Shown here: in pieces, positions 21,140 to 29,400 of the stretch
Numbering within the stretch: the first letter of the stretch is position 1
Layout of the letters: each line of letters begins with the position of its first letter
NCBI GenBank assembly: GCA_937922005.1
Contig: CAKZWV010000060.1
Location: forward strand, 1-62,763
DNA length: 62,763 nt
DNA from: an uncultured Clostridia bacterium
GTDB taxonomy: Bacteria; Bacillota; Clostridia; Saccharofermentanales; DTU023
Direction of reading: 5' to 3'
Translations under genes and position numbers: made by a program
Notes under the pieces: generated by a model
The model's input: only the letters and a program-made list of their open reading frames with translations
Told to the model about the DNA's origin: nothing
Database searches by the model: none

Positions 21140-21460
21140 CTATTCTGGACTTTCCCAGAGAAGTTCGTACTTTCCTTGGGGCTTTTCAAGATAGACAGCC
21201 ATGAGATCTTCGACCATCATCATCTCCGGCGAAAAGGGGAGGTAAAAAGCCACACCCGTCCCACAAGAGACACTCAACTTGCGGGGAACAGGGACCAAGA
21301 TAGCCCGGGGATCCCCTAGGTCGCTGATATTTTCGAAAAAGTCGAGGGCGGCCAAGTGGGTGTGAAAAACAGCGATTTGCCTTGCCGGGGTAGGATGGGT
21401 TTGATGTTGAAGGTTGTTATTCTTTTGGTCGTTCATATTCTCTCGTAATTTGTGATTCAT
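21140..21460 (-). CDS. hypothetical small protein downstream of tusA-yeeE
   Basis: ORF only; no motif recognised. Confidence 0.25.
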   Translation of the reverse strand: MNHKLRENMNDQKNNNLQHQTHPTPARQIAVFHTHLAALDFFENISDLGDPRAILVPVPRKLSVSCGTGVAFYLPFSPEMMMVEDLMAVYLEKPQGKYELLWESPE

Positions 21461-21599
21461 AGTAAGAAGAAGGGGGCCCTGAGGCCCCCTAGATTCCGCT
21501 CCAGGTTGGCAGAAGAAGCAAGTAGAAAGACAACAGCTTGCCTTAGGGGCTAAGAGTTAACCTTCTTTGGGCTTCAGGTGGGGAGCGGGAAGAAATGTT

Positions 21600-21809
21600 T
21601 TATGCTTTGCGCTGTAAAGTTAACACAAATTCTTCCCCATTTTGGGTGCGTTTTACTTCATAGCCATGGTTTTGAGCATAGCGGGTCACGTTTTCGGTGG
21701 GGGTGATATCGTCTAACAGGATTTCTAAGCTATCAGGCTGCTGATCGAGCTGGGCTTTAGTCTGTAAAACAGGTTCCGGGCAGGATAGGCCTCTTACATC
21801 AAGAGTCAT
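21600..21809 (-). CDS. TusA-like sulfurtransferase (YeeD/TsuB-type)
   Basis: 69-aa ORF with a CPxP motif, 'RGLSCPEPV'. Confidence 0.85.
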   Translation of the reverse strand: MTLDVRGLSCPEPVLQTKAQLDQQPDSLEILLDDITPTENVTRYAQNHGYEVKRTQNGEEFVLTLQRKA

Positions 21810-21844
21810 AGTTTTCTCCTTTATCTTTTTAGGCTACGCCAGGC

Positions 21845-22972
21845 TTAGAGTGCCTTAGCTTTCGTGCCTTTGAGGGCTTGGTTGCGTCGAATCTGGGTGA
21901 CGACAATCACCGTAAGGACGACAAAGCCAATGATCACCATGCATTTTCCATTGGCGCTGATGCCACCTTGCTTGACCAGGACCCCGTCCTTAACGGTATC
22001 AGGGGCACCGGCTAGGCCAAAGTTATGGGAGAAGGCAGCTCCAATCAGCATCCCTAAGACGGTGATCGCAGAATCGATATTGCCAGTTCCTGTTAGGATG
22101 AGTTGGCGCAGGGGGCAGCCGCCAAGGAGGACGGATCCATAGCCAACTAAGGCCATGCCCAAAATATTCCAGACCACGCTGGAGTGAGCAATGGGCTGAC
22201 CGATCATGGAAAAATGCACCTTGTTAGCGATCAAATTGACGATAAAGGCGGAGACCAAAATCCCAATCGATCCAAGCAGCAAGGTCCAATCCTTCAGCAT
22301 AAATAGGTCACGGAAGCCACCAGCCATGCAGAGTCTCGACCGTTGGGCTAAGGCTCCAGCGACGAGAGCGACGCCAAGGCTCAAGTAAACATTGGCATGC
22401 ATGCTGCCAGGTCCTTTTTCGGAGAAGGCAAAGAGGGCAGGTACGGCAATGACCGCAATGAGGATGATGAGAGACGTAATAGGTAGGGCTACACCCTCCA
22501 GCTTAGGCTCATTATGGGTACGTCCCAGGGAGTAGCCTTTTTGTAAGGCGATCACTCCCATAAAAATACCTACAGCAAAACCAATAAGGGCAATCCAAGC
22601 GTTGAGGTCACCTGCGCTCATCCGAAGGACCAAGCGCATAGGGCAGCCTAAGAAGGCCAGGGCTCCAATCATGACGAAAAAGCCAATCGTGAAGCGTAAC
22701 AGAGGGGAAGAGCCTCCCCTTGCCTTAAATTCTTTGGTTGCCAAGCTAATGATCATAGAGCCCAGTAAGAGTCCAACAATTTCCGGTCGGAAATATTGAA
22801 CAGGTGCCGCAGTATGGAGCTTCAAGGCTCCGGCCGAATCTCTCAAGAAACAGGCAATACAAAGGCCCATGTTGCCAGGGTTGCCCGCCAGCATCAGGCC
22901 AATTGCCATAGCGCCCAAGAGCAATCCTACCCCAAGGGCTATCCATTTATCTTTATTCACAAATACCTCCAA
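21845..22972 (-). CDS. YeeE/YedE family sulfur-compound (thiosulfate) transporter
   Basis: Polytopic membrane protein with two Cys-containing repeats (GLCIACFLRD and RLCMAGGFRD). The ORF-track start is TTG; a GTG at 22960 sits 5 nt after GGAGG and is the more likely start. Confidence 0.8.
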   Translation of the reverse strand: MEVFVNKDKWIALGVGLLLGAMAIGLMLAGNPGNMGLCIACFLRDSAGALKLHTAAPVQYFRPEIVGLLLGSMIISLATKEFKARGGSSPLLRFTIGFFVMIGALAFLGCPMRLVLRMSAGDLNAWIALIGFAVGIFMGVIALQKGYSLGRTHNEPKLEGVALPITSLIILIAVIAVPALFAFSEKGPGSMHANVYLSLGVALVAGALAQRSRLCMAGGFRDLFMLKDWTLLLGSIGILVSAFIVNLIANKVHFSMIGQPIAHSSVVWNILGMALVGYGSVLLGGCPLRQLILTGTGNIDSAITVLGMLIGAAFSHNFGLAGAPDTVKDGVLVKQGGISANGKCMVIIGFVVLTVIVVTQIRRNQALKGTKAKAL

Positions 22973-23173
22973 TGTCTCCCGTAAGTAAAAAAATCTCGTC
23001 CCAAAGCTCGCCAGATGGCAGGTCTCTGGATCAAGACTTCTCTCTTCGGAATGCTAGATCTTGGTAGCCCTTTTTCCTACCCAATATAGTAAAACAAAGA
23101 GGATATTACAAGATACTGACAGGTCCCATCTGAGAACAGCGATGACAGCATAGCTCAATCGAGTAGGATACTA

Positions 23174-23902
23174 CTATGATACGAAAGTTTTCATCTTGGC
23201 ACAGCGGTGGCGTCGATACCAGTCGTCCCATTGTTCAAAAAAGATGACCAGGGAGACATAAGCTAGATCGACATAGAAGTAGAGTTTTTGATTGATGGCA
23301 AGCTGTGGAGGGAAACGCTTTACCATCATGTTTTCCAGCCATTGGCCATAGATAGGGACGATAAGAAAGACGGCGATAGCTAAACACATGAGGTAGAGGA
23401 ACAGAAGCAGCCCCTTGCCTGGCAGAGTATGCAAAAACCAGGTTTTCTCACTCTTCTGTTGCTGGAAAGAAAAGCCGGAATCTGGAACGACATCGACCCG
23501 AAGAAGCCATAAGGAGAAAAGACGTAATAGAAAAATGGGACGAATGACTCCAAAACAGGATAATAGGAGGGCACCGACTATGAATCTAGGGGCTATCAGT
23601 CGCAGCCAAAAGAGATATATAGGGGCACTAGTGGGGTAGGGGTTATCAGCGATGATGGTGATATTGATAAGGAGCCATATAAGAGCAAGAGCGATGACAC
23701 CGAGTTGAAGAAAACGCTTTATCCAGTTCGTCAACGTTGCATAGCGCTGAAAGGGTAGGAGGTCTTGCATCAACCTTGCCTGAAGGTCAGGATTTCCCGG
23801 AGCGAAGTTATGCTTCACAACCTGGCCACATTTGGGACAACAGATGTAGGTAGCCTCATGGGCGAAGAAGTAATATTGGCAAGCATTATTTTCGCAGATC
23901 AT
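23174..23902 (-). CDS. zinc-ribbon (CxxC...CxxC) polytopic membrane protein, paralog A
   Basis: N-terminal 'CENNAC...CCPKCG', 3-4 TM helices and a conserved C-terminus 'QLAINQKLYFYVDLAYVSLVIFFEQWDDWYRRHRCA'. Its termini are near-identical to 24248..24967 at the DNA level. Confidence 0.5.
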   Translation of the reverse strand: MICENNACQYYFFAHEATYICCPKCGQVVKHNFAPGNPDLQARLMQDLLPFQRYATLTNWIKRFLQLGVIALALIWLLINITIIADNPYPTSAPIYLFWLRLIAPRFIVGALLLSCFGVIRPIFLLRLFSLWLLRVDVVPDSGFSFQQQKSEKTWFLHTLPGKGLLLFLYLMCLAIAVFLIVPIYGQWLENMMVKRFPPQLAINQKLYFYVDLAYVSLVIFFEQWDDWYRRHRCAKMKTFVS

Positions 23903-23970
23903 AGGTCACCGAATTTCACTTATTGTGGCGTAATCTCGGGATTAAGGCCAAGTCCAATTCCATATTAAGG

Positions 23971-24144
23971 TTAACCATATCTATGTAATGTGCGGTTTAT
24001 GTCCGTAATTTCAGCCATAATTTCTATAGCGTAAGCATTTTCAGACGTTGTTTCTTCAGCCTTAACGAGTCGCATTTTACTTGGCATTACGATAGGGATA
24101 AGTATGGTAAAGCATAATAAAAAAAGAATAGAATTTTTCTTCAT
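23971..24144 (-). CDS. unannotated 57-aa ORF with signal-peptide-like N-terminus (MKKNSILFLLCFTILIPIVMPSKMRLVKA|EETTSENAYAIEIMAEITDINRTLHRYG)
   Basis: Translated by hand from the minus strand. ATG at 24144-24142, with GGAG 9 nt upstream (aaaggagaacttgcccATG) and a TAA stop at 23973-23971. Absent from the ORF track because it is under 60 aa. Confidence 0.45.
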   Translation of the reverse strand: MKKNSILFLLCFTILIPIVMPSKMRLVKAEETTSENAYAIEIMAEITDINRTLHRYG

Positions 24145-24247
24145 GGGCAAGTTCTCCTTTCAAGAAAACTGGATAAATGGTTGGTCTATTGATTGCCAAA
24201 TTAAACTTCTAGGTGGAAAACGTCTTGGTGTATGGCAGGTATTTCTT

Positions 24248-24967
24248 TTATAACCTTCTAATCTGGGCACAGCGGTGGCGTCGATACCAGTCGTCCCATT
24301 GCTCAAAACAGATGACCAGGGAGACATAAGCTAGATCGACATAGAAGTAGAGTTTCTGATTGATGGCAAGCTGTGGATAGCGACTTGGTGGCAAGATCTT
24401 TTCGTTCCATTGCTGGTAAGAAGGTACACGATGCCGGATAATCCATATTAGGAAAAGTAGGTAAAGTACTAGGATGATGCTCTTTCCTGGTAAGGTATGC
24501 CAGAACCAGGCTTTTTCATTCTTTCTCTGTTGGAAGGAAAAACCGGAATCAGGAATAACATTGACCCCCAACGTGCGTATAGACCAGCGTTGTGCTATAG
24601 ACATGAGTGGAATGGCCCCAAAACAAACCAAGAGGAAAAAAGCCGTACAGTAACGTTGGACTCCCATCTTGACTACCAATGAGCCAATAGATTCATCGTT
24701 CATAGAAACATTCGAAAGCGCAATACTGTTGCATGCACCCTCTATCAAGGCAAGAAGGATCAGGCCCATCCAAACCGCACCTTTTGTTCGATTGCTCATC
24801 TTGAGATAGCGCTGAAAGGGTAGGAGTTCTTGCATCAATCTAGCCTGAAGGTCAGGATTCCCGGGAGCGAAATTATGCTTCACAATCTGGCCACATTTGG
24901 GACAGCAGATGTAGGTAACCTCATGGGCGAAGAAGTAATATTGGCAAGCATTATTTTCGCAGATCAT
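24248..24967 (-). CDS. zinc-ribbon (CxxC...CxxC) polytopic membrane protein, paralog B
   Basis: Same architecture as 23174..23902. The N-terminal 55 aa and C-terminal 35 aa are almost identical and the middle is diverged. A strong SD (aaaggagg) is present. Confidence 0.5.
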   Translation of the reverse strand: MICENNACQYYFFAHEVTYICCPKCGQIVKHNFAPGNPDLQARLMQELLPFQRYLKMSNRTKGAVWMGLILLALIEGACNSIALSNVSMNDESIGSLVVKMGVQRYCTAFFLLVCFGAIPLMSIAQRWSIRTLGVNVIPDSGFSFQQRKNEKAWFWHTLPGKSIILVLYLLFLIWIIRHRVPSYQQWNEKILPPSRYPQLAINQKLYFYVDLAYVSLVICFEQWDDWYRRHRCAQIRRL

Positions 24968-25293
24968 AGCCGGCCTCCTTTGTCGCAGGAGCTTAAAGCT
25001 TAGTCAAAAGCTGGTAAATACCAAGGCGATCGTTACCAGGATTGTGTCCATGAATCAGCTTTGAAACCGCTTACTAGGTGGATTTTAATTGTTCTATGCG
25101 ATTATCATAGCAAATATAGGGGGCTGTAGCTAGGAAAATTGCTTGCTCTGACTAGATCCTTATCTTTTCCATGAGGGTCTCTGGGGAAAGGCGTTTTTGG
25201 CTCCCCAAAAAGAGAGAATCCTTCTTTTATGCGGTTATTTTTGGATATTCTTGAACATTGTGCTACTATCCTTCCTTTGTTATGATGGTGTTT

Positions 25294-25953
25294 TTACTCA
25301 GCACTCCTGCCCTCTCTAGACTGGTAATCTTCGGCTATACGGTCCTTCCAAGAGCAATTCAGTTCCTTGCTGGATCGAAAAAAAGAAAGGGTGTCGGAGA
25401 GGACCTCATAGTTAAGCTTCATTCCTACATTATCAGGAAGGTAGTCGACAGCACAGCTTGCGTCAATGCCCACACTTGCTGCAGTATCTACGGCATCGAT
25501 ATTGGCCCCTAGAAAGAGGAATTCCCAGCCATATTTTTCCTTCTGGCGCTCGATCATCGTCTTCACCTGGCTACTGCTATAGCAGTGACTGGAGTTTTCC
25601 ATCCCATCCGTAGTAATGATAAAGAGGGTGCGTTCCGGGACATCCTCTTTTCTGGCATATTTATGAATATTTCCAATGTGATGGATGGCTTCGCCGATGG
25701 CGTCGAGCAAGGCGGTGCTCCCGCAGGCACAATAATCCTCGTCTGTCATGGGGTCGACCTTCTGAATAGGGATACGGTCGTGGATGACTGTACTTATGTT
25801 GTTAAAGAGAACGGTTGAGACCCAGGCCTCGCCCTTCTCTTTTTTCTGTTTAGAGATTAAGGAGTTGAACCCTCCGATGGTATCTTTTTCCAAGCCGCTC
25901 ATAGAGCCGCTACGATCTAGGATGAATACGATTTCTGTCAAGTTCTTTTTCAT
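25294..25953 (-). CDS. standalone vWA (von Willebrand factor A) domain protein, TerY-like
   Basis: MIDAS motif 'DRSGSM' (DxSxS) plus a downstream T..DG. The likely start is the internal ATG at 25953, with GGAGG 8 nt upstream. No signal peptide. Confidence 0.7.
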   Translation of the reverse strand: MKKNLTEIVFILDRSGSMSGLEKDTIGGFNSLISKQKKEKGEAWVSTVLFNNISTVIHDRIPIQKVDPMTDEDYCACGSTALLDAIGEAIHHIGNIHKYARKEDVPERTLFIITTDGMENSSHCYSSSQVKTMIERQKEKYGWEFLFLGANIDAVDTAASVGIDASCAVDYLPDNVGMKLNYEVLSDTLSFFRSSKELNCSWKDRIAEDYQSREGRSAE

Positions 25954-26155
25954 GTTGAATACCTCCGTATAGAGAAATAGGACTATTTGTTGGTGCACCT
26001 TACAGTCTTATTGTAGGTCGGTATTCACGTTCTTTGGTCGCATGGTGAGCGACATTCTCGTAGCTCGCTAGCCTCTGGGGCATGTGATTCGTTCGCCCCG
26101 ATTATGAAATAATTGCGGATGATTATGGCAAGCTCACATACAAACTAATTCACCC

Positions 26156-27385
26156 TTAACCTCCAATCAAGCTCTGATCGAAGGCAAATACGGCCTCATT
26201 GATTTCAAAGACGTTATAGTTCCCATGTTCTACAAAATATTCCACAATGATGTCAAATTTATGAGAGTGAGAGAGGGCAAAGCCTGCTTTCATGAGCATA
26301 TCTTTCATTTCCTCAAGGGGTAATTCCAGGGCGATGGCAAAGGCGATGGCTGTTGACTTGGAGGGCCTATAGGCCGTATTAGAGCGGATCTTGGAGAAAA
26401 GCCTCCGATCAACGTTGGCCTTTTTATAACATTCGGCATCGGTCATGCCGGATTCGTCAATCTTGCGCAGGAGCATTTCAGAAAAGCTTTCATCGATCTC
26501 TTTTAGGGCCTCATTGAGCGAAGGCAGGCTCTTGAGGGAGAATTCATTAGGGATGCGATCAATTTGGATTTCTACAGGCTCTTCCCTAACCGAAAGCTCA
26601 TAAGACGAAAATTCATTATTGTAGGATAACTTGTCATGCTTATCTTGATAAAAGGCAATTCCATCATTGCCCTCATAGAGGGTATTCAGATCTTCCTCTT
26701 CATAAGGAGCACTTCCATCCTCGTCTTCAAAGGGGAGACTCCCATCAGCCCCCTCCTCAGAATAAGGACCTTGCTCGTTCGGTAAACGGTAATCTCTTTG
26801 CTTAAGCCCCAAGTGATAGGGGCCATGCGCATGCGTGTAGCGGTCCGTGCCTTGCGAATCCGTGTAGCGGTCATCGATGTAGGCAGCAAGGTCAGCAAAT
26901 AGTTTGTTACTGATCTGGTAGGACTTTTTGTCGAAAATGACCAGGTAAACCATCATATCGTGGTCAAGCAAAAAAGCACGGATCGTATCGATGGCAATCC
27001 TCAAGGCCTGATCCTTTGGATAAGCAAATATTCCAGCAGATATTAACGGAAAAGCTATTGATTCGCAGCCGTACTCATTAGCCAGCATAAGGGAAGTATG
27101 ATAGCAGGAAGTTAAAAGATCAGCTTCTCCCTGCTGGCCGCCAGACCAGCGGGGTCCGACAGCATGGATAACATACTTGCAGGGCAACTGGTAGGCTTTC
27201 GTGATTTTGGCACTTCCCGTCTTGCAGCCATGGAGGGTGGCGCATTCGGCTAAAAGTTTAGGCCCTGCCGCCCGGTGAATGCAGCCATCTACGCCACCAC
27301 CGCCCATTAGGGACTCGTTGGCAGCGTTGACGATGGCGTCAACCTTCATCTTGGTGATGTCATTTCTGACGATTTGCAGTGGCAT
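26156..27385 (-). CDS. Macro domain (MacroD-type ADP-ribose binding/hydrolase) fused to C-terminal XRE-type helix-turn-helix
   Basis: 'VNAANESLMGGGGVDGCIHRAAG' macro motifs, an acidic linker, then 'MTDAECYKKANVDRRLFSKIRSN...TAIAFAIALELPLEEMKDML', an XRE-like HTH. The second ATG, preceded by GGAGG, is the likely start. Confidence 0.65.
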   Translation of the reverse strand: MPLQIVRNDITKMKVDAIVNAANESLMGGGGVDGCIHRAAGPKLLAECATLHGCKTGSAKITKAYQLPCKYVIHAVGPRWSGGQQGEADLLTSCYHTSLMLANEYGCESIAFPLISAGIFAYPKDQALRIAIDTIRAFLLDHDMMVYLVIFDKKSYQISNKLFADLAAYIDDRYTDSQGTDRYTHAHGPYHLGLKQRDYRLPNEQGPYSEEGADGSLPFEDEDGSAPYEEEDLNTLYEGNDGIAFYQDKHDKLSYNNEFSSYELSVREEPVEIQIDRIPNEFSLKSLPSLNEALKEIDESFSEMLLRKIDESGMTDAECYKKANVDRRLFSKIRSNTAYRPSKSTAIAFAIALELPLEEMKDMLMKAGFALSHSHKFDIIVEYFVEHGNYNVFEINEAVFAFDQSLIGG

Positions 27386-27510
27386 AAAGGAACCTCCGTT
27401 CATTTTTGCATTGTGCCCTTTTCTGTGGCGACAGAATTATTTTAAATTCTTAAAAAGTTCTTGACAAGGAAGATACTATGCGATACGATGTATAGCACGA
27501 AAGGAGGTAT

Positions 27511-27834
27511 GTGATGGATGCTCAGTTGAAACGTGGTCTATTGGATATCTGTGTTTTAGCGGCCATCAAGAATGAGGATTCTTACGGCTATAAGATCATA
27601 AAAGACCTAACACCCTATGTCGAGCTTTCTGAATCAACCCTCTACAGCATTCTGAAGCGATTGGAAAAGGCCAATATGTTAGGGGTTCGCAGAGTGGAAC
27701 ACAACGGCAGACTCCGAAAATATTACCATATCACCCCAGAGGGGCTAGGGCGCATCGAAGAGTTTAAAGACGAGTGGCAACAAATAGAGAGGATTTACCA
27801 ATTCATAATAAAGGAGGATCATGGCAATGAATAA
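27511..27834 (+). CDS. PadR family transcriptional regulator
   Basis: 'LDICVLAAI...SYGYKIIKDL...TLYSILKRLEKANML', a winged-HTH PadR signature. Confidence 0.85.
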   Translation: MMDAQLKRGLLDICVLAAIKNEDSYGYKIIKDLTPYVELSESTLYSILKRLEKANMLGVRRVEHNGRLRKYYHITPEGLGRIEEFKDEWQQIERIYQFIIKEDHGNE

Positions 27835-28429
27835 GAAAGAATTTCTTGCCAACTTGCGAAATGCCTTGTCTGGCTTGCCGCAGGATGAAATAGAAGAGCG
27901 TTTGACGTTTTACGCTGAAATGCTCGACGACAGGATGGAAGAAGGACTATCTGAAGAAGAGGCCGTTTTGGCTGCTGGCCCAATAGATGATATTGTGAAG
28001 CAGGTTGTGGCAGAAGTGCCTTTGACTAAAATTGCTAAAGAAAGGATCCGTCCTAAGCACCAACTGGCTGGCTGGGAAATGATCCTTTTGATCTTGGGGG
28101 CCCCACTCTGGCTACCTCTTGGTTTGGCAGGAATCTTGACGATTCTTTCCGTCTATGTTTCTCTATGGGCGGTCATTATTTCTCTCTGGGCGATCTTTGC
28201 CTCTTTTGTACTATGTGGAGGCAGTCTCTTCCTGACCAGCCTTATTATGTGCCTTCGTGGCAGCTTTGTGGCAGGGCTAGCTTTGCTGGGGGCAGGGATG
28301 ATTTGTAGCGGATTATCTATTTTCATGTTTTATGCCTGCAAGGTCATTACGGCGGGTATTGTGAAGCTTACAAAGAAATTTACCTTGTGGGTAAAAAATT
28401 GCTTTATAGGGAAGGAAAAAGCGCAATGA
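27821..28429 (+). CDS. DUF1700 (HAAS-type) membrane protein
   Basis: N-terminal 'KKEFLANLRNALSGLPQDEIEERLTFYAEMLDD' followed by a multi-TM C-terminus. Second gene of the classic three-gene module. Confidence 0.7.
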   Translation: MAMNKKEFLANLRNALSGLPQDEIEERLTFYAEMLDDRMEEGLSEEEAVLAAGPIDDIVKQVVAEVPLTKIAKERIRPKHQLAGWEMILLILGAPLWLPLGLAGILTILSVYVSLWAVIISLWAIFASFVLCGGSLFLTSLIMCLRGSFVAGLALLGAGMICSGLSIFMFYACKVITAGIVKLTKKFTLWVKNCFIGKEKAQ

Positions 28430-29400
28430 AAAGGAAAACGAAAAATTGGCTTGGCGCAGGAGCTAGCCTTATCCTTGTTGGATTGATTCTTTATGTTGGT
28501 GCTATGACAGCTCTCAAGTGGGACTATGCGAAGATGTCTACGATCGATTATGTAAGTAATACGCATGAAATCAAGGAGTCTTTCCGTAATATCTCTCTGA
28601 AGACGGATGAAGCAAGAATTGTCTTTGCCTTGTCAAAGGATGGAAAGTGTAGGGTCGAGTGCTACGAGGAGGCCAAAGCTGTGCATGCTGTCGCTGTAAA
28701 AGAAGCTACCCTCTCCATTGAGATGACTCATACAAGGTCTTGGTATGATTATATTGGTATACATTATGAATCGCCGAAAATTACAGTATATCTTCCGAAG
28801 CAAGAGTACAATGCCCTGTCTATTAATTTAAATGTTGGAAATATTGAAATAGAGAATAAACTGGCTTTTACAAACGCAGATATCAGATTATCCACGGGTA
28901 ACGTGAACTATGGCGCATCTACGAAAGAAGCTATTCACATTCAGATTGGCACAGGGAATATTTCTGTGGGCAGATTGACAGCTGGCTCACTGGATATTTC
29001 CAGTGCGGTGGGGACGGTTGCCATTACGGATCTGACCTGCAAGAATGATCTTACTTTAGGTTTGACGACTGGCACAACAAGCTTAAACGATGTTTTCTGT
29101 GGAAATCTTGTCTCAACTGCCACGGCTGGCGAGATCACCCTCGATCATGTGATCGCAAGAGAAAAGTTTACCATCGAAAGAGATACGGGCAATATAAAAT
29201 TTAAGGGAAGCGATGCAGCTGAAATCCATGTAAAAACGAATACCGGAAATGTAAGTGGTAGTCTACTGACCAATAAGGTTTTTCTTGCCAAGAGTGAATC
29301 TGGTAAGGTTCATCTTCCCCCATCTACCACCGGCGGCCCATGCAAAATTGATGTGCTCACAGGGAATATCGATATGGAGATTGACGAGAAAGCTGAATGA
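28426..29400 (+). CDS. DUF4097 ('putative adhesin' beta-helix) domain membrane protein
   Basis: N-terminal TM followed by repetitive 'TGN(I/V)..' beta-helix rungs. Start chosen at MKRKTKNW, overlapping the upstream gene's stop. Confidence 0.7.
   Translation: MKRKTKNWLGAGASLILVGLILYVGAMTALKWDYAKMSTIDYVSNTHEIKESFRNISLKTDEARIVFALSKDGKCRVECYEEAKAVHAVAVKEATLSIEMTHTRSWYDYIGIHYESPKITVYLPKQEYNALSINLNVGNIEIENKLAFTNADIRLSTGNVNYGASTKEAIHIQIGTGNISVGRLTAGSLDISSAVGTVAITDLTCKNDLTLGLTTGTTSLNDVFCGNLVSTATAGEITLDHVIAREKFTIERDTGNIKFKGSDAAEIHVKTNTGNVSGSLLTNKVFLAKSESGKVHLPPSTTGGPCKIDVLTGNIDMEIDEKAE

Follow-up and report, generated by a model that had tools for sequence, protein, structure and literature searches.

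A macrodomain-HTH gene and a small vWA gene form a mobile two-gene unit of gut Clostridia with a predicted dedicated promoter

We analyzed a 62,763-nucleotide (nt) stretch of DNA from an uncultured Clostridia bacterium (GenBank assembly GCA_937922005.1, contig CAKZWV010000060.1, positions 1 to 62,763), referred to at its full length as the window, and within it two neighboring minus-strand genes. The upstream gene (26156..27385; 409 amino acids, aa) encodes macro-HTH, in which a MacroD-type macrodomain is fused to an XRE-type helix-turn-helix (HTH) domain, and the downstream gene (25294..25953; 219 aa, start MKKNLTE) encodes a cytoplasmic single-domain von Willebrand factor A (vWA) protein with a metal-ion-dependent adhesion site (MIDAS). 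Both genes had been placed at these coordinates by a preliminary description made from the sequence alone, which we confirm. The pair is a widespread, mobile two-gene unit of gut Clostridia, and the region between its genes carries a predicted operator, a -10-like hexamer, and a leader hairpin, all oriented with the vWA gene on the minus strand.

The macro-HTH and vWA proteins

The macro-HTH start at 27385 (MPLQIV...) agrees with all homologs and follows a GGAGG located 8 nt upstream. The macrodomain covers residues 1-165 (26891-27385, minus strand), of which residues 19-131 match Pfam Macro (PF01661) along the entire profile (positions 1-118 of 118, E = 2.8e-45), and the NCBIfam model for O-acetyl-ADP-ribose deacetylase (NF001664) is matched at 206 bits for a cut-off of 200. 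Its best sequence relatives in the PDB are DR_2288, MACROD1/2, and YmdB-type proteins, and annotation pipelines label macro-HTH as either "O-acetyl-ADP-ribose deacetylase" or "macro domain-containing protein". MacroD proteins bind and process ADP-ribose through the motif N-x6-GGG-[VLI]-D, a following histidine, and a G-[IV]-[YF]-G loop. Across 18 aligned homologs, the motifs NAAN, GGGGVDG..IH, and FPLIS.G..GYP were invariant, including residues N20, N23, G28-G31, V32, D33, H37, F112-P113, S116, G118, and Y122. The macrodomain retains the full catalytic signature and may be a hydrolase acting on O-acetyl-ADP-ribose or on mono-ADP-ribosylated Asp/Glu.

Residues ~166-290 comprise a conserved "LFADIAAYIDDRY" helix and a variable linker that is acidic, as the preliminary description had noted. 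This linker is ~60 aa longer in the window than in relatives, most of which are 330-350 aa long. It is prone to insertions and deletions (window 26500-26890; locus L084): against 409 aa in the window, the protein has 370 aa in a relative that is 85% identical and 428 aa in another one.

The C-terminal region (residues ~295-409, 26159-26503, minus strand) consists of the XRE-type HTH and two extra helices. In sequence libraries this domain stayed below threshold: none of Pfam HTH_3, HTH_26, and HTH_31 was matched (best HTH_26, E = 0.18, 12.5 bits for a cut-off of 22), and PDB sequence and profile searches with the last ~115 residues gave no genuine match. It was the predicted structure that decided the assignment, with a five-helix XRE fold whose best structural matches include C.AhdI, C.Esp1396I, C.BclI, P22 c2, and the 434 repressor. 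The fusion that had been proposed is thus borne out by Pfam and NCBIfam for the macrodomain and by structure prediction for the HTH, while the domain search suggested for the HTH came back empty at the sequence level. Among PHROGs, the region matched phrog_4031 ("unknown function"). With a profile of this domain, 7120 clusters (50% identity) were matched, and the 150 best matches shown all have it in C-terminal position. Only 38 of these 150 best carriers (P0241-P0390) have a Macro domain; many are short proteins made of a "YIxxxY" helix, a linker, and the HTH, and a few have other N-terminal domains. Some of these carriers are probably fragments or chimeras, and Macro-less regulators of the same HTH family may exist.

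Structure prediction also settled the fold of the vWA protein. Pfam vWA models remained below threshold (VWA E = 0.05, VWA_CoxE E = 0.049), and searching the PDB by sequence or by profile gave nothing or spurious matches. The AlphaFold2 model (predicted local distance difference test score, pLDDT, 88.8) matched TRAP (E = 1e-8), integrin I domains, and CMG2 in a Foldseek search against the PDB with a probability of 1.0; there were 349 matches at E <= 1e-3, and the 50 best listed are almost all vWA or I-domain proteins at template-modeling (TM) scores of 0.6-0.68. Phage vWA proteins in BFVD match the model at TM scores of 0.75-0.83. Across 38 homologs, the MIDAS residues D13, S17, T80, and D116 never vary, and S15 is kept in at least 90%; a C-terminal helix, WK.RI.EDY, is conserved as well. 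The protein has neither a signal peptide nor a membrane segment and opens directly with strand 1, in line with the earlier view of a cytoplasmic vWA protein of about 220 aa with an intact MIDAS. It matches phrog_7371 (E = 1e-53, "unknown function"), and its homologs are labeled "vWA domain-containing protein" or hypothetical, apart from one named YegL by the Joint Genome Institute.

Homologs of the vWA protein at 34-50% identity, accompanied by neither macro-HTH nor the palindrome described below, are common in actinophages and Pseudomonas phages, where those examined are located in replication and recombination modules. One of them is gene 61 of Microbacterium phage Phrancesco (L086), a full-length homolog at 34% identity. 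SEA-PHAGES records list this gene and its relatives partly as "DNA ligase" and partly as "hypothetical protein", and the former label looks like an annotation error.

Linkage of the pair and the region upstream of the vWA gene

More than 8000 full-length macro-HTH homologs were retrieved, and a scan of one genome per species located at least 569 macro-HTH loci, mostly in Oscillospiraceae, Lachnospiraceae, and other gut Clostridia. Carriers include Pseudoflavonifractor capillosus ATCC 29799, Intestinimonas butyriciproducens, and Vescimonas fastidiosa. Sequence identity is high across genera, and single 90%-identity clusters contain up to ~19,500 metagenomic sequences for the vWA protein and ~5,000 for macro-HTH. 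To describe the linkage we used the 80 best genome loci, anchored on macro-HTH, and 80 viral loci from IMG/VR, anchored on the vWA gene (160 related loci together). A vWA ortholog was found in 64 of the 80 genome loci. In 62 of them it follows macro-HTH directly on the same strand, while one ortholog lies upstream and another is convergent; among the 16 loci lacking it, seven have less than 1 kb of downstream DNA. All-against-all clustering of the open reading frames (ORFs) of the 80 genome loci returned exactly two conserved genes, macro-HTH and vWA. The preliminary description had placed the pair at the head of an extended same-strand cluster, of which the link between macro-HTH and vWA holds and the rest does not, the other genes of that cluster being absent from the 160 related loci.

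From the aligned macro-HTH/vWA intergenic regions emerged a 19-bp palindrome, TGTCGC-N7-GCGACC. In the window it reads TGTCGC-TCACCAT-GCGACC (26036..26054) and is the single match in 62.8 kb, for 0.03 expected. The palindrome lies upstream of the vWA gene in 60 of 62 genome loci, in one copy per locus nearly throughout and 61-159 nt before the vWA ATG. It stays with the vWA gene when the pair is rearranged: where 1-4.6 kb of other genes (a Y-family polymerase, YolD, other cargo) separate the two, the palindrome is still found beside vWA, and it also accompanies vWA genes that are upstream of, or convergent with, macro-HTH.

The palindrome is followed, exactly 20 nt further, by the -10-like hexamer TACAAT (26010..26015). 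Of 88 unique leaders, 85 have a TAnnnT box (consensus TATAAT) at exactly this distance from GCGACC; T1 is conserved in 85, A2 in 86, and T6 in 86 of the 88. Judged by its sequence, TAnnnT at this fixed offset is the signature of a -10 box, which would make the palindrome span ~-51 to -33 of the predicted vWA start site, with its center near -42. A second exact match to TGTCGC-N7-GCGAC, upstream of macro-HTH in two loci (L001 7413-7430 and L003 8087-8104), was rejected as an operator and is probably due to chance, since a coding region contains it and TAnnnT is missing at +20.

If the palindrome is the operator of the HTH, the two are expected together. In the vWA-anchored viral set, 31 of the 38 loci that have macro-HTH carry a palindrome with at most one mismatch, compared to 6 of the 42 that lack macro-HTH (Fisher p = 1.2e-9, with no correction for relatedness), and random 170-nt segments reached this match in 3 of 480 cases. 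Among the six palindrome loci without macro-HTH, L093 and L110 have less than ~2 kb of upstream DNA, and L099 and L100 carry a divergent copy of the HTH domain downstream; in the other 36 of the 42, the palindrome is at the random level. Conversely, the seven macro-HTH loci that lack the standard palindrome have variant palindromes together with divergent HTH domains. Recognition helices starting with D-[RK]-K (N[IV]DRKLFSKIR) go with the arms GTCGC/GCGAC and those starting with S-[KR]-Q (NISRQHFSKI and similar) with a TTGAC arm, and this second pairing recurs in four locus sets that have distinct operator sequences.

The leader between palindrome and vWA gene is predicted by RNAalifold and RNAfold to contain a read-through insulator (25962..26026). 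It includes an anti-Shine-Dalgarno (anti-SD) sequence, GAATACCG (26019-26026), and a hairpin, ATAAGACT...AGTCCTAT (25977-26011), that can sequester the SD sequence GGAGG (25962-25966). Across 19 leaders, RNAalifold found 14 hairpin pairs, 8 of them with compensatory changes, and the 3' end of the hairpin is a U-run or the SD sequence. Since the 5' arm starts inside the -10 box and overlaps the start site, RNA initiated at the promoter would lack this arm. In the window, RNAfold gave -23.3 kcal/mol for read-through RNA and -3.9 kcal/mol for promoter-initiated RNA; across loci, the structure formed by read-through RNA is a terminator or masks the SD (-23 to -36 kcal/mol), whereas promoter-initiated RNA is open. 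With a promoter-like -10 box and a covarying hairpin lying between the two genes, their simple co-transcription is doubtful.

The same leader can be viewed as a cis-regulatory attenuator composed of a first hairpin (P1, GUCGC-N7-GCGAC) and a terminator or anti-SD hairpin, with the two genes co-transcribed and the HTH acting on a target elsewhere. P1 can indeed fold, the second hairpin covaries and has a U-run, and macro-HTH and vWA are on the same strand with short gaps. We nevertheless find control at the RNA level very unlikely. The P1 arms are invariant instead of covarying, and T1, A2, and T6 of TAnnnT are near-invariant even though T1 and A2 are unpaired. In addition, the element persists where an unrelated gene precedes vWA, its arm sequence changes with the recognition-helix residues of the HTH, and an Rfam search with the vWA leader matched no family. 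The combination of invariant palindrome arms and an adjoining hairpin that covaries freely favors protein recognition of duplex DNA over an RNA hairpin. The position of the palindrome, its offset from the -10 box, its tracking of macro-HTH, and the co-variation between arms and helix all point to macro-HTH as the probable factor acting at this site. The most likely reading of these sequence features is a dedicated vWA promoter, shielded from read-through, with macro-HTH as its transcription factor.

Accessory genes, mobile settings, and neighbors in the window

Certain genes recur with the unit. An ADP-ribosylglycohydrolase (ARG) gene (Pfam ADP_ribosyl_GH, E down to 2e-36) was identified in 20 of the 160 related loci, almost all of them viral contigs. 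It usually begins 3-14 nt past the vWA stop codon, and in L107 and L108 it lies between macro-HTH and vWA with a palindrome of its own. This gene occurs only in loci that have macro-HTH or a diverged version of its HTH domain, or in which the contig ends too early to show the upstream DNA. A gene for an HD_4 (RelA/SpoT-type HD) protein is present in four loci, between the pair in three of them and behind the palindrome in place of vWA in L063. Neither an ARG nor an HD_4 gene was found in the window.

In several genera, the unit belongs to a promiscuous mobilizable element (L001-L005, L008, L010, L025, L088-L096, and L170) with the order macro-HTH, variable slot, Y-family polymerase, YolD, vWA, SIMPL, MobC/NikA, and relaxase. 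The variable slot holds a 510-aa protein without assigned function or, in L001, GmrSD, and the unit adjoins the presumed origin-of-transfer (oriT) side of the element. In Vescimonas, PGAP names the Y-family polymerase of this element "DNA methylase". On Selenomonas plasmid pSRC2, the neighbors include an EEP nuclease, an AAA ATPase, a Nudix-type pyrophosphohydrolase, a nucleoside 2-deoxyribosyltransferase, and DUF262. Further genes related to nicotinamide adenine dinucleotide (NAD) or nucleotides stand beside the unit in L107 (4664-6298) and L169 (7783-9950), including an AAA_28 (NadR-kinase-like) ATPase, a peptidase-motif protein with a second MacroD-type domain, a Nudix-type pyrophosphohydrolase, and a nucleoside 2-deoxyribosyltransferase.

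Some of these associations fit a DNA-targeted repair function, in which the HTH would tether the hydrolase to DNA, the vWA protein would be a damage-tolerance accessory, and the palindrome would be a secondary loading or autoregulatory site. The Y-family polymerase (Pfam IMS) and YolD lie between the pair in ~19 mobilizable-element loci, EEP-family nucleases recur beside it, and phage vWA homologs are found among ERF, SSB, exonuclease, and DNA polymerase genes. However, the polymerase/YolD insert is confined to one closely related element and missing from most loci, and a sequence-specific palindrome that keeps a constant 20-nt distance from a -10 box, and whose changes are mirrored in the recognition helix, has the look of a gene regulator's site rather than of a general tether. 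Macrodomains of the TARG1/DarG type reverse thymidine-linked ADP-ribosylation of DNA, but the macrodomain here is of the MacroD type. A repair role thus appears quite unlikely to us.

A different reading of the mobile settings is that the unit is counter-defense cargo, which would erase host immunity based on ADP-ribosylation, be it by transferase toxins or by signals derived from ADP-ribose, for the benefit of a mobile element, with the vWA protein binding and blocking a host defense protein. The pair occurs on IMG/VR viral contigs and on one complete gut phage genome, and in the promiscuous element it stands just upstream of the MobC/NikA and relaxase genes and adjoins the slot that can hold GmrSD; the high identity across genera and the addition of ARG in phage-borne versions point the same way. 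Against this, many copies, the window's included, are in ordinary chromosomal settings with no mobile-element genes nearby. Such cargo would also differ from the explanation that we favor below mainly in whose side the unit serves, the regulatory mechanism being the same. We regard it as rather unlikely.

In the window itself, the pair is surrounded by genes that do not travel with it. At 23174-24967 (minus strand), a 59-aa ORF lies between two zinc-ribbon multi-pass membrane paralogs, which share 59% identity and are nearly the same at both termini; the paralogs matched no Pfam, NCBIfam, or PHROG family. Of the gaps given previously for this part, 326 bp from vWA to paralog B and 68 bp from the peptide ORF to paralog A are correct, but paralog B and the peptide ORF are separated by 97 bp, not 103. 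Beyond them, at 21140-22972 (minus strand), are a YedE-family protein and a YedF/TusA-like protein, followed by a 106-aa ORF with a weak selenium/sulfur-carrier match. The first two had been called yeeE and tusA; they score best as a YedE/YedF-type putative selenium transporter pair (TIGR04112, 465 bits), and by these matches the three genes are a predicted selenium-handling trio, not a thiosulfate uptake system.

On the other side, a divergent PadR-HAAS-DUF4097 operon (27386-29400, plus strand) lies upstream of macro-HTH, with overlapping back-to-back promoter-like sites. The candidate macro-HTH promoter, TTGTCA-17-TAAAAT (27439..27467, minus strand), came from a consensus scan and is back to back with the PadR promoter; it is a match to consensus that is not kept at other loci. 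A palindrome local to the window, AGAATT-N6-AATTCT, covers the -10 of this site (within 27420-27470) and may be a PadR operator; in that case PadR would control macro-HTH, though in this strain alone. The region 23001-29000, containing the zinc-ribbon paralogs, vWA, macro-HTH, and the PadR operon, has a G+C content of 43-46%, compared to 48-59% in the flanks (59% on the rib operon side). This low G+C content suggests acquired DNA, although no integrase or mobile-element gene was seen nearby.

Read from the window alone, macro-HTH, vWA, the zinc-ribbon paralogs, the peptide ORF, and yedE/tusA could pass for one larger module, as they share a strand and have short gaps. Near-identical metagenomic relatives do keep the order PadR-HAAS-DUF4097, macro-HTH, vWA, and their contigs all end ~350-400 bp past vWA, which would fit a failure of the assemblies at the paralog pair with its 59% identity. 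As a conserved system, however, this module is refuted: the zinc-ribbon paralogs, the 59-aa ORF, YedE, TusA, the carrier-like ORF, PadR, and HAAS have no homolog in the 80 genome loci or in the 80 viral loci. It is very improbable, the least likely of the explanations considered here.

A proposed response to ADP-ribosylation and its relation to known systems

Our preferred explanation, which we hold with slightly better than even confidence, is that the mobile two-gene unit provides an inducible response to ADP-ribosylation imposed by foreign transferases. The computations show the domain identities, the linkage, the operator/-10 architecture, and the HTH-operator co-variation; that macro-HTH binds DNA, in which direction it regulates, that ADP-ribose is the signal, and what the vWA protein does are inferred. 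Macro-HTH would be bifunctional, combining a MacroD-type ADP-ribosyl hydrolase or ADP-ribose-binding domain, a flexible linker, and an XRE-type HTH. The HTH, presumably as a dimer, would occupy the palindrome over the -35 region of the private vWA promoter, and given the position of this operator (~-51 to -33), its occupancy would decide whether vWA is produced. Where a related locus contains an ARG or HD_4 hydrolase, this gene would be under the same control. RNA reading through from upstream would be terminated, or its ribosome-binding site masked, by the hairpin, so that only promoter-initiated RNA would be translated; with read-through silenced in this way, vWA (and the ARG or HD protein where present) would be made only when the private promoter fires. 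Operator occupancy would in turn be set by ADP-ribose, O-acetyl-ADP-ribose, or ADP-ribosylated substrates, bound or turned over by the macrodomain. The output would be the vWA protein, as a Mg2+-dependent, peptide-binding protein that handles ADP-ribosylated or otherwise targeted proteins, along with extra de-ADP-ribosylating enzymes in the loci that have them, and the response could be used by cells as well as by their phages and mobilizable elements. An ADP-ribose-linked DNA-binding regulator had already been suspected at this locus, and the idea gains support from the operator-like palindrome that tracks the HTH and from the ARG and HD_4 genes found elsewhere.

A more specific version can be formulated, in which macro-HTH is an enzyme-coupled sensor of ADP-ribosylation that turns on the tightly silenced vWA gene, with ARG or HD helpers at some loci, the unit is an immune or counter-immune system that has so far gone unrecognized and is very common in human-gut Clostridia and their phages and mobilizable elements, and the vWA protein reads or neutralizes ADP-ribosylated proteins or the transferases themselves. 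We offer this version tentatively, as a possibility clearly short of an even chance.

Several observations weigh against an inducible response of this kind. All the evidence on the unit is computational, and many loci are related by horizontal transfer, so that the counts overstate their independence. The palindrome can also form an RNA hairpin in read-through transcripts, and the invariance of its arms argues otherwise without proving it. The promoter would be unorthodox, with a poor -35 (ACCAAA) and a GCGACC/TTGACC arm 20 nt from the -10 box; this poor -35 and the center near -42 resemble activator-dependent promoters (C proteins, lambda cI), and a repressor fits equally well. No conserved operator was found upstream of macro-HTH itself, where the regions are unrelated between loci. 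Given the intact catalytic motifs, the macrodomain may have an enzymatic role alone, with the HTH regulating constitutively. PADLOC returned no match for macro-HTH, vWA, or the zinc-ribbon paralogs, bar one insignificant CARF_2M hit. Finally, the replication and recombination settings of the phage homologs hint at a DNA-linked rather than a chaperone role for the vWA protein, whose function is the weakest part of the whole account.

The closest described analogue of the unit is found among the predicted ARG-centered systems that would counter viral ADP-ribosylation (Iyer, Burroughs, Anantharaman, and Aravind, Viruses 2022, PMC9503650, section 3.8). These systems, reported in actinobacteria, planctomycetes, and proteobacteria, combine a Nudix-HTH or WYL-HTH factor, an ARG core, an alarmone-type HD phosphatase, and a vWA "peptide-binding chaperone", with Macro as an occasional accessory only (PMC9503650). 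Like them, the unit lacks a linked transferase and combines a vWA gene with a one-component HTH factor whose sensor is of the ADP-ribose type; ARG and HD components (here in 20 and 4 related loci), variable accessories, and horizontal mobility are further common traits. The sensor fold, however, is Macro and neither Nudix nor WYL. Unlike in those systems, the constant genes here are Macro-XRE-HTH and vWA, in Clostridia and their phages and elements, and ARG is optional and absent from the window. The Macro-XRE fusion, its vWA pairing, and the operator of this unit do not appear in PMC9503650, and by this comparison the unit is an analogue and not a member.

Individual parts of the unit also have counterparts elsewhere. 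The combination of a nucleotide-handling enzyme fold with an HTH recalls NrtR, an ADP-ribose-responsive Nudix-winged-HTH repressor in which an ADP-ribose-handling fold and an HTH form a one-component regulator, and NadR, in which an HTH is fused to NAD-metabolizing enzymes. Unlike both, macro-HTH has a Macro sensor fold with intact catalytic motifs, its HTH is C-terminal and XRE-type, and its predicted target is a vWA gene and not NAD biosynthesis. The N-terminal 165 aa resemble the MacroD/YmdB O-acetyl-ADP-ribose deacetylases (E ~1e-45, signature motifs kept), but those are single-domain proteins, whereas macro-HTH adds a conserved helix, a linker, a DNA-binding domain, and a dedicated gene partner. 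Controller (C) proteins of restriction-modification systems and lambda-type cI are similar in structure and in having a palindromic operator centered near -42, adjoining or over the -35, yet they have no enzymatic domain.

The vWA protein is similar to the TerY/YegL-type proteins (COG4245; TerY-P triad) in being a small cytoplasmic MIDAS-vWA protein of ~220 aa. The preliminary description had called it TerY-like, which amounts to a COG-style label: among the neighbor clusters examined in the 160 loci, no ter genes, Ser/Thr kinase, or PP2C phosphatase stand beside the pair. Like DarTG and the SirTM-macro operons, the unit has a macrodomain that could reverse ADP-ribosylation beside a partner gene. 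Unlike them, it has no DarT, sirtuin, GcvH-L, or LplA2 partner, its macrodomain is of the MacroD type, and its partner is a vWA gene under HTH control, as predicted above. The DarG architecture had been dismissed at the outset, and rightly so, the macrodomain scoring as MacroD/YmdB-type and no transferase partner being conserved beside macro-HTH; the neighbor clusters contain vWA and variable genes in the place of DarT, although no search with a dedicated DarT model was made. Because the defining partner is missing in each case, the unit is not a TerY-P triad, a DarTG or SirTM-macro system, or a member of the ARG-centered systems. In the literature, we found no description of a Macro-XRE regulator, of its pairing with vWA, of the operator/-10/insulator architecture, or of the helix-operator co-variation; the parts (MacroD enzymes, XRE regulators, vWA/MIDAS proteins) are known, and a similar system has been predicted in other phyla.

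To our knowledge, next to nothing has been established about bacterial responses to ADP-ribosylation imposed from outside, be it by phage transferases or by toxins. The sole proposal that we found for such responses is computational and concerns the ARG-centered systems of other phyla. The unit described here would make the idea of counter-ADP-ribosylation compact, with one regulator-enzyme, one 19-bp operator, one promoter, and one output gene, and it is abundant in human-gut Clostridia, with gut phages carrying it too. Its regulator would be a transcription factor built on a macrodomain, which could serve to sense ADP-ribose in applications, provided that ligand control is real. A large family of small vWA proteins in bacteria and phages, so far unannotated, would also acquire a function.

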